DNA of 64,000 bases from Atopobium sp. Its GTDB lineage: Bacteria; Actinomycetota; Coriobacteriia; Coriobacteriales; Atopobiaceae. Position numbers and translations under genes: made by a program. Within the stretch, counting starts at the first letter, position 1. The number at the start of each line of letters is the position of its first letter. Where the stretch lies: contig JABZHN010000002.1 of the NCBI GenBank assembly GCA_015258835.1, positions 16,624 through 80,623 on the forward strand, given 5' to 3'. The notes under the pieces are model-generated. The model worked only from the letters and a program-made list of their open reading frames with translations. It was not told the origin of the DNA and ran no database searches. Positions 36,984-37,186 of the stretch are shown in pieces.

Positions 36984-37186
36984 CGGGTTTCTCGCCAGGT
37001 GGGCGGCACGAGCCTGACGTGCGCCTGATTTCTTCAAAGAATCTGTAAATTTTGCCTAAATACATCAAAGAATCTGTGGATTTGCCTGATTTTGTTAAAG
37101 AATCGGTGGCGCAAATACAGATTCTTTGTACTTTTCAGGCAGACTTTTCTAGACGTAACTCACATCTGCACTTGGCGAGAAACCCG
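36984..37186. mobile_element. MITE-like non-autonomous element, 203 bp, bounded by perfect 14-bp terminal inverted repeats (CGGGTTTCTCGCCA … TGGCGAGAAACCCG) and carrying core repeat copy C (37023..37140)
   Basis: The 14-mer occurs inverted at 36984..36997 and direct at 37173..37186. The internal 118-bp core is about 90% identical to the copies at 17005 and 24139. No ORF is present. Confidence 0.6.

Follow-up and report, generated by a model that had tools for sequence, protein, structure and literature searches.

The 64,000-nucleotide stretch of Atopobium sp. DNA analysed here (contig JABZHN010000002.1; hereafter the window) carries, between rpsJ and the ptp and rplC genes of the S10 operon, one copy of a 118-bp non-coding, AT-rich modular repeat to which we have given the name F1. 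An original prediction, made from the letters of the window, had placed this repeat as the core of a 203-bp MITE (miniature inverted-repeat transposable element). We find that the F1 copies are probably new modular interspersed repeats of a BOX- or MITE-like kind, selfish and non-autonomous, which are tolerated behind the 3' ends of genes and reshuffled at ends that they share with other modules. Together with two further families, F2 and F3, and solo copies of a short motif, M14, they form a small system of related modules.

The window holds three copies of F1, called A, B and C (Table 1). As had been proposed, the core recurs at about 90% identity; over the 118 nt, the copies are 87.3, 89.8 and 89.8% identical in pairwise comparisons. 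The description of three ~30-bp direct subrepeats, with an inverted copy at the end of the core, was also correct for each of them. The unit is a box of ~24 nt, GCCTGA-N7-AAAGAATCTGT, also written GCCTGATTTC...AAAGAATCTGT, which is present three times in direct orientation with a period of 31 nt and once inverted. A direct subrepeat of ~31 nt thus consists of GCCTGA-N7-AAAGAATCnGT and a short A/T-rich linker, and the inverted subrepeat at the 3' end reads ACAGATTCTTTGnACTTTTCAGGC. A 24-nt subrepeat used as a probe had 4 matches in the window, with 0.00 expected. An alignment of ~130 copies shows that the termini GCCTGA...TCAGGC are constant (in 127 copies) and that the flanks are unrelated between loci. 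The termini form terminal inverted repeats (TIRs), which in copy C have arms of 25 nt (37023-37047 and 37116-37140) that are 80% complementary, and the other copies are alike. The GC content is 0.36-0.40 as compared to 0.51 for the window, and at 118 nt the repeat is too short and too repetitive for a plausible open reading frame (ORF) of its own; none of the copies lies within a called gene. The proposal of a non-coding, AT-rich, dispersed repeat with imperfect TIRs is therefore a good description of F1.

The distribution of the repeat was examined by scanning a collection of species-representative genomes for an exact 24-mer of the F1 inverted arm. This gave more than 117 stretches, and the matches listed all came from assemblies of Atopobium sp., Lancefieldella parvula or Atopobiaceae; the range of F1 is limited to the Lancefieldella (Atopobium) parvula group. 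The window itself has a match in a contig from a human metagenome. The 24-mer had no match in viral contigs, and a phage origin of F1 was rejected on this ground. There are 3 copies in the 64 kb of the window and at least 8 in one metagenome-assembled genome. Contigs often end inside F1, and many matches are found at contig ends. The matches listed represent at least about 25 distinct sites when clustered by their distal flanks, which were used because the near flanks themselves contain repeats.

F1 lies inside a gene at 0 of about 25 sites. Both neighbouring genes could be called at 21 sites, and of these 12 are convergent, 6 tandem and co-oriented, 3 tandem and anti-oriented and none divergent, against a background of 4% convergent (p = 6.5e-12) and 21% divergent gene pairs (p = 0.008), figures that come from a crude codon-usage gene caller and from loci chosen for carrying F1. 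The modules are thus far confined to the stretches that follow gene 3' ends. The tie to the most highly transcribed operons of the cell, suggested by the three window copies, is incidental, since the feature common to the ~25 sites is the position behind 3' ends, mostly between convergent genes. It had also been stated that all copies lie just downstream of strong terminators. This is true of the copies at 24k and 37k, where the repeats sit between an upstream terminator and a downstream promoter, but not of the 17k copy, as a scan of the window detected no terminator-like site between yacP and that copy. When compared with the local majority gene direction, F1 was co-oriented at 10 sites and anti-oriented at 5, which is not significant, and no significant strand or replication bias was seen.

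Two of the three window copies of F1 adjoin a member of a sister family, F2, which the original prediction had missed. F2 has the same architecture as F1, with the direct subrepeat GCCnGnTTTTCTCGCCAnGTCTGAG present three times and followed by one inverted unit. The two families have a common skeleton, GCCnGATTT...TCTG...TTT, an identical order of units (T-type, A-type, T-type, inverted A-type) and a common 3' end, GCACTTTTCAGGC. A third modular family, F3, with two direct and three inverted units of GATCCAAAAnnnnGGTAATTATGTG, occurs in other strains only and was not found in the window. Profile searches of related loci gave 127 full copies of F1 and 71 of F2, arranged as F1 (59), F1-F2 (36), F2-F1 (34) and F1-F2-F1 (6), and in these loci adjacent F1 and F2 are co-oriented without exception. 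The spacer from F2 to F1 measures 34-36 nt at 9 sites, and the one from F1 to F2 ranges from 37 to 67 nt. A constant spacer of ~35 nt at 9 sites implies that the F2-F1 composites have spread as units. The number of units differs as well; F2 has 1, 2, 3 or 4 direct units and the inverted one, and F1 is 3+1 in nearly all copies. In two contigs (L131 and L164) tandem repeats of 13-26 nt (GCTTGCGCCTGACCC-like), which echo the GCCTGA start, were observed upstream of F2, in a number that varies between strains.

The clearest view of turnover comes from the rpsJ-ptp spacer, which was sampled in contigs with an identical RpsJ, whose fusA-rpsJ DNA is 98.0-98.8% identical to that of the window, and further by a metagenome scan for Ptp. 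These near-identical strains differ in what the spacer contains from the rpsJ terminator up to the M14-TAGAAT-ptp start. F1 is present in six contigs from the RpsJ look-up and in eight more from the Ptp scan. Other contigs have F2 with 3+1 units (L126, L131, L164 and L214), a mini-F2 of 59 nt with 1+1 units (L157), F1-F2 (L166), F2-F1-F2 (L159) or F3 (L123, L130, L158, L165 and L170). In a sister species (L172; RpsJ 100% and Ptp 80% identical) the spacer is ~170 nt long and has neither a repeat nor M14. The presence/absence polymorphism between strains, which had been named as a check on the prediction, is thus seen at this spacer and includes replacement of one repeat by another. Since the contents vary between near-identical strains and the spacer of a relative is empty, F1 cannot serve the operon as a conserved regulatory leader. 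Conservation at the same positions across a whole family, named beforehand as the mark of a leader, was not what we found, which argues for a mobile or selfish element. Judged from these comparisons, F1 has no required role in the expression of rpsJ, ptp or rplC, and is incidental to the S10 operon.

It could still be imagined that the repeats are a cis-regulatory leader or a promoter array for ptp/rplC, rpoB and the tRNA-tuf genes, as each of the three window copies is upstream of highly expressed genes and points the same way. The 12 convergent sites out of 21, however, have no downstream gene start, no promoter-like hexamer pairs are found within the window elements, and close relatives have different repeats or none in the rpsJ-ptp spacer. 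We consider this reading extremely unlikely. A specific form of it, with TTGCCT as the -35 hexamer, an overlapping -10 and the 31-nt period, was tried and rejected; the -10 positions misfit, the scanner finds no pairs and most sites are convergent.

Turnover was also seen at the site designated site 0, where some alleles have F1 alone and others have F1-spacer-F2. The difference between the two is precisely the segment that the common GCACTTTTCAGGC bounds, and the F2 copies there have two, three or four direct units. Allele changes of this sort would be expected from recombination at the shared ends and among subrepeats.

Two 14-mers had been taken as the TIRs of the 203-bp element. Both exist in the sequence, CGGGTTTCTCGCCA at 36984-36997 and, as its exact reverse complement, TGGCGAGAAACCCG at 37173-37186, but the segment that they enclose is not a unit, and the true ends of the element are the GCCTGA...TCAGGC of the 118-bp core. 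The motif TGGCGAGAAACCCG, here called M14, is an independent dispersed motif, with 24 matches in the window at up to 2 mismatches (0.54 expected), 9 of them exact. Examples lie at 6563, 9400, 21548, 23906, 24313, 33206 and 37842, and most of the matches are outside called genes. In 853 kb of related Lancefieldella loci, the density of the exact M14 13-mer is 12.3 per 100 kb and 86% lie outside called genes. The extended consensus is GCGCCTGGCGAGAAACCCGTGCGCTCG, and M14 is essentially a solo T-type box of F2 (TTTCTCGCCA). The idea of a 203-bp MITE, bounded by perfect 14-bp TIRs and with the 118-bp core as its cargo, has in its favour that the two 14-mers are exact reverse complements, and that the orientation of M14 near F1 is invariable, CGGGTTTCTCGCCA upstream and TGGCGAGAAACCCG downstream. 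The 9 exact copies in the window, and the ~12 per 100 kb elsewhere, are nevertheless mostly far from F1. M14 flanks F1 on both sides at only 2/22 sites, on one side at 10/22 and on neither at 10/22, the distances vary, and the other two window cores are not bounded by a pair of M14. The right-hand M14, with the adjacent TAGAAT and the start region of ptp, is kept in strains that lack F1 in the spacer, among them those with F2-, F3- and mini-F2-type alleles. It is therefore part of the conserved flank, and 36984-37186 is not an insertion unit. We give hardly any credence to the 203-bp model.

Table 1. Positions of F1, F2, M14 and associated features in the window, with an example locus for F3.
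Feature	Position	Strand	Remark
F1 copy A	17005..17122	+	67 nt past the yacP stop codon
F2	17187..17306	+	3 direct and 1 inverted unit; 64 nt downstream of F1 copy A, co-oriented
Tandem array of ~six 24-nt M14-like units (TGGCGAGAAACCCGCTTGGAGTTG-like)	17649..17804	+	directly upstream of a consensus promoter
M14	23906..23919	+	directly past the rplL terminator
F2	23961..24081	+	56-57 nt upstream of F1 copy B, co-oriented
F1 copy B	24138..24255	+	rplL/rpoB gap
Two M14 (24281-24294, 24313-24326)	24281..24326	+	downstream of F1 copy B
rpsJ intrinsic terminator, hairpin and T-run	36807..36839	+	left flank conserved across all spacer alleles
Second terminator-like hairpin, upstream of F1	36925..36955	+	confined to F1-type spacer alleles
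M14, "left TIR" of the original prediction	36984..36997	-	copy of the independent dispersed 14-mer
F1 copy C	37023..37140	+	core of the finding; nhmmer 130 bits, model positions 1-118
F1 copy C, subrepeat 1	37023-37053
F1 copy C, subrepeat 2	37054-37083
F1 copy C, subrepeat 3	37084-37107
F1 copy C, loop	37108-37116
F1 copy C, inverted subrepeat	37117-37140
M14, "right TIR" of the original prediction	37173..37186	+	adjacent to TAGAAT; ptp start codon 37 nt further on
F3, example locus	L123/L130 ~2990-3230; also L158, L165, L170		rpsJ-ptp spacer

The M14-like array at 17649-17804 is followed by the promoter TTGACA-17-TAATAT (17833-17861), which serves the tRNA-Tyr/Thr/Met-tuf genes. Its number of recognised units ranges from 0 to 5 among strains with identical EF-Tu.

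The proposed ability of the core to form a long hairpin is borne out by prediction, as the window copies fold far better than shuffled sequence, with z from -4.5 to -5.5 as RNA or DNA. It is conceivable, then, that F1 is an RNA-level element, carried in the 3' end of the upstream mRNA or as a small RNA, with a hairpin that would work as an attenuator, a processing site or a stabiliser of the 3' end. Action at the RNA level has been shown for some of the REP, ERIC and Correia elements. The predicted RNA hairpin of F1 is strong (-41.5 kcal/mol, z -4.8), F1 lies behind co-oriented genes at 6/9 tandem sites, and both arms have retained their T-rich tracts on one and the same strand, all of which would fit. 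The opposite strand, however, folds nearly as well, there is no significant orientation bias, and the 24k and 37k copies are downstream of intrinsic terminators. The inverted arm does not have a fixed partner: of the three window copies, two pair it with subrepeat 1 and one with subrepeat 2. A single conserved fold across F1 copies was not found. One copy of F2 folds no better than shuffles. No covariation was seen; in the F2 alignment the pairs are all invariant, and positions of the extended stem vary without compensation. Rfam, searched over the window with its gathering threshold and over two regions with E<=1, gave no match to F1 and returned only tRNAs and the L10 leader. A function at the RNA level is in our view quite improbable.

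The sequence is conserved in another pattern. The columns of the boxes GCCTGA, AAAGAATCnGT and GGATTT reach ~2 bits in all four subrepeats over ~25 paralogous sites; the search pattern itself prescribed the inverted arm and left the other three subrepeats free to vary. The spacers of 3-7 nt and the loop have low conservation across the same sites. Such a pattern suggests that the units are each recognised in a sequence-specific way, be it by a host protein or by a transposase or recombinase, and not that they serve a single hairpin.

Recognition by a host protein is the basis of the main rival explanation, that the subrepeats are useful protein-binding arrays which bind a nucleoid-associated protein, gyrase or some other protein, and serve between transcription units as elements of boundary or topology. 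The BIMEs of E. coli are reported to bind gyrase and IHF. F1, F2 and F3 would on this account be interchangeable at one spacer because any of them could supply the function. Several features agree with it: the boxes of all four subrepeats are at ~2 bits and the 3-7 nt between them vary, the 31-nt period is close to three helical turns, the order of unit types is common to F1 and F2, the F2-to-F1 spacing is fixed, the window elements have a terminator on one side and the next promoter on the other, and M14 flanks F1 under a strict orientation rule. A useful array is harder to reconcile with an rpsJ-ptp spacer that is empty in the sister species and has different contents in near-identical strains. 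No candidate protein was identified, and the conservation of the boxes could instead reflect binding sites of a transposase, gene conversion or recent spread. We therefore find this explanation rather unlikely.

The interpretation of F1 as a selfish repeat has to be weighed against several observations that speak against it, in addition to the crude gene calls and the choice of loci behind the context statistics. The patterned conservation of the boxes looks like selection on protein-binding sites and not like neutral decay. Two of the three window sites are stable: the rplL-rpoB site has F2-F1 in 10/10 strains sampled, and the yacP-tRNA site has F1-F2 in 10/10 strains sampled via a tuf look-up. 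We found no clean pair of filled and empty sites for F1 in otherwise identical sequence; at rpsJ-ptp one allele differs from another in that the whole spacer is replaced, and there is therefore no clean insertion junction. In the flanks of 37 representatives of sites and architectures, G(C/T)GC is favoured upstream and GCGC downstream, with many sites that have neither, and no clear target-site duplication was seen. As GCGC is palindromic, it could be either a duplication of 2-4 bp or an extension of the inverted repeat. Finally, no F1 subrepeat was found outside complete elements in the 853 kb of Lancefieldella loci, and no parent insertion sequence (IS) was therefore seen.

The modules were also found in connection with several inserts and rearrangements. 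In L019 (3995-5678; also in L007 and L088) an AT-rich segment of 1.3 kb has an F1 copy on either side, the two being inverted to each other, and the structure as a whole is flanked by direct repeats of ~26 nt (TCTCGyGAGAAGAACGTrCT). The protein of 325 aa encoded between the two copies was considered as a mobilising gene and rejected, as it has no match in Pfam, NCBIfam or PADLOC; its C-terminus resembles a DUF559/Vsr-type endonuclease by eye, which is an impression only. In the rplL-rpoB spacer of L132 and L137 (2407-3028; also in L009) a 622-bp AT-rich insert lies within the third F2 subrepeat. Its annotation gives two genes on the minus strand, one for a cupin and one for DUF4261, and the DUF4261 call (2837-3088) extends ~60 nt beyond the right end of the insert. 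Compared with the empty allele of L135, the insert has a flanking duplication of 8-10 nt (GTTTTTCT). At site 0 in L048, L091 and L110, an accessory island of low GC content and more than 5 kb starts within the first F2 subrepeat, after TTTTCTCGCCAT (from ~L091:2125), and its first ORF has an end that is RelE/YafQ-type toxin-like, by eye only. Both the cupin/DUF4261 cassette and the AT-rich island may insert at TTTTCTCGCC boxes. In L023, L061 and L089, F1 lacks subrepeat 1 (model positions 31-118 remain) and is abutted by a common unrelated sequence (...TTGCACTTGCTTTGACAATTCA), beyond which the contig runs for another ~126 nt in L023 and L089 and for a different length in L061. This sequence looks like the end of a multi-copy element, for example an IS inserted into F1.

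One could imagine from this that F1, F2, F3 and M14 are all recognition sites of one host or mobile-element protein, such as a recombinase, at which modules and small gene cassettes dock and are exchanged. Hints of this are that modules are exchanged exactly at the shared ends, that the cupin/DUF4261 cassette lies within an F2 box with a duplication of 8-10 nt, that the AT-rich island begins within another F2 box, that a 1.3-kb gene segment is flanked by inverted copies of F1, and that the boxes are conserved in every subrepeat. We hold this extended reading to be distinctly unlikely.

For the selfish repeats that we favour, the following picture can be drawn. F1 would act at the level of DNA and persist where its insertions do least harm. 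The original dispersal to dozens of sites was most likely brought about in trans, by a transposase or recombinase for which the repeated boxes are recognition sites. Once in place, recombination at the shared ends (GCACTTTTCAGGC) and between subrepeats would add, delete and swap modules and alter the number of subrepeats.

Two features of the window outside the repeats should be mentioned. The gene ptp (37229-37762), for a low-molecular-weight protein tyrosine phosphatase (PF01451), lies between rpsJ and rplC and splits the usual S10 cluster. Paralogues of Ptp, 81-93% identical, adjoin tyrosine-recombinase-like genes in other contigs (L167 and L171), which suggests that the ptp gene also travels on mobile elements. 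At 22619-22758 there is a ribosomal protein L10 leader (RF00557, 46.7 bits as compared to a gathering threshold of 44), in its expected position upstream of rplJ.

Lancefieldella/Atopobium parvula is a common commensal of the human mouth and gut, and its non-coding DNA is undescribed. Repeats of the F1 type break short-read assemblies, in which contigs end inside them, and make hypervariable spacers even within a ribosomal-protein gene cluster. Such spacers could therefore serve as markers for strain typing, as BOX-PCR does. If the boxes are true sites of protein binding or recombination, the system would be a tractable model for the spread of repeats and the capture of genes.

That F1 does not belong to a described repeat family, as first stated, agrees with our searches, which found no match in Rfam and no description of F1-type repeats in the literature on Atopobium or Lancefieldella. 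Compared with strict MITEs, such as the Correia elements, RUP and MITEAba12, F1 is similar in being ~100-300 bp, AT-rich and non-coding, with imperfect TIRs of ~24 nt and many dispersed intergenic copies that are polymorphic between strains. It differs in having no demonstrable target-site duplication and no IS with matching ends in the 853 kb of loci, and the internal tandem duplication of its left arm is unusual.

REPs are described as GC-rich palindromes of 20-40 nt, many of them tagged with GTAG or CGTC, and are linked to RAYT transposases (PMC3733652, PMC3116915). F1, at 118 nt and 36-40% GC, has no such GTAG or CGTC tag. There is a likeness to the REP/BIME mosaics of enterobacteria and to REPINs, in which several short motif types cluster behind genes; M14 is similar to REPs in abundance and intergenic location, and the 59-nt mini-F2, with one direct and one inverted unit, resembles a REPIN doublet. 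The BrickBuilt repeats of Porphyromonas gingivalis consist of tandem repeats of ~23 nt between a leader and a tail, with small inverted-repeat ends, in ~19 copies per genome (PMC4596501). Like F1, they are species-restricted, intergenic and found in an oral bacterium, but their repeats are contiguous, spacerless and numerous, and promoter activity has been shown for BrickBuilt. F1 has three spaced units and an inverted one and no promoter-like sites, and no sequence relation was seen.

Pneumococcal BOX elements (boxA-boxB(n)-boxC) of S. pneumoniae and S. suis are enriched between convergent genes, have no clear target-site duplication and are read as dormant, parasitic MITE-like DNA with no convincing parent transposase (PMC3049150). 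F1 resembles them in that both are small non-coding composites with inverted terminal modules, variable tandem internal modules and predicted stem-loops, which occur in clusters with other repeat families (PMC3049150). There is no apparent likeness in sequence, nor would one be expected when phylum and base composition are different. The host of F1 belongs to another phylum, Actinomycetota (Coriobacteriia). The internal modules of F1 and F2 copy the terminal arm itself, as compared to a distinct boxB, and the number of modules is nearly fixed at 3+1 in F1 and ranges from 1+1 to 4+1 in F2. In F1 and F2, moreover, two families share their ends and alternate in a fixed orientation. The F1 system is thereby an addition from the Coriobacteriia to the small set of modular interspersed repeats.

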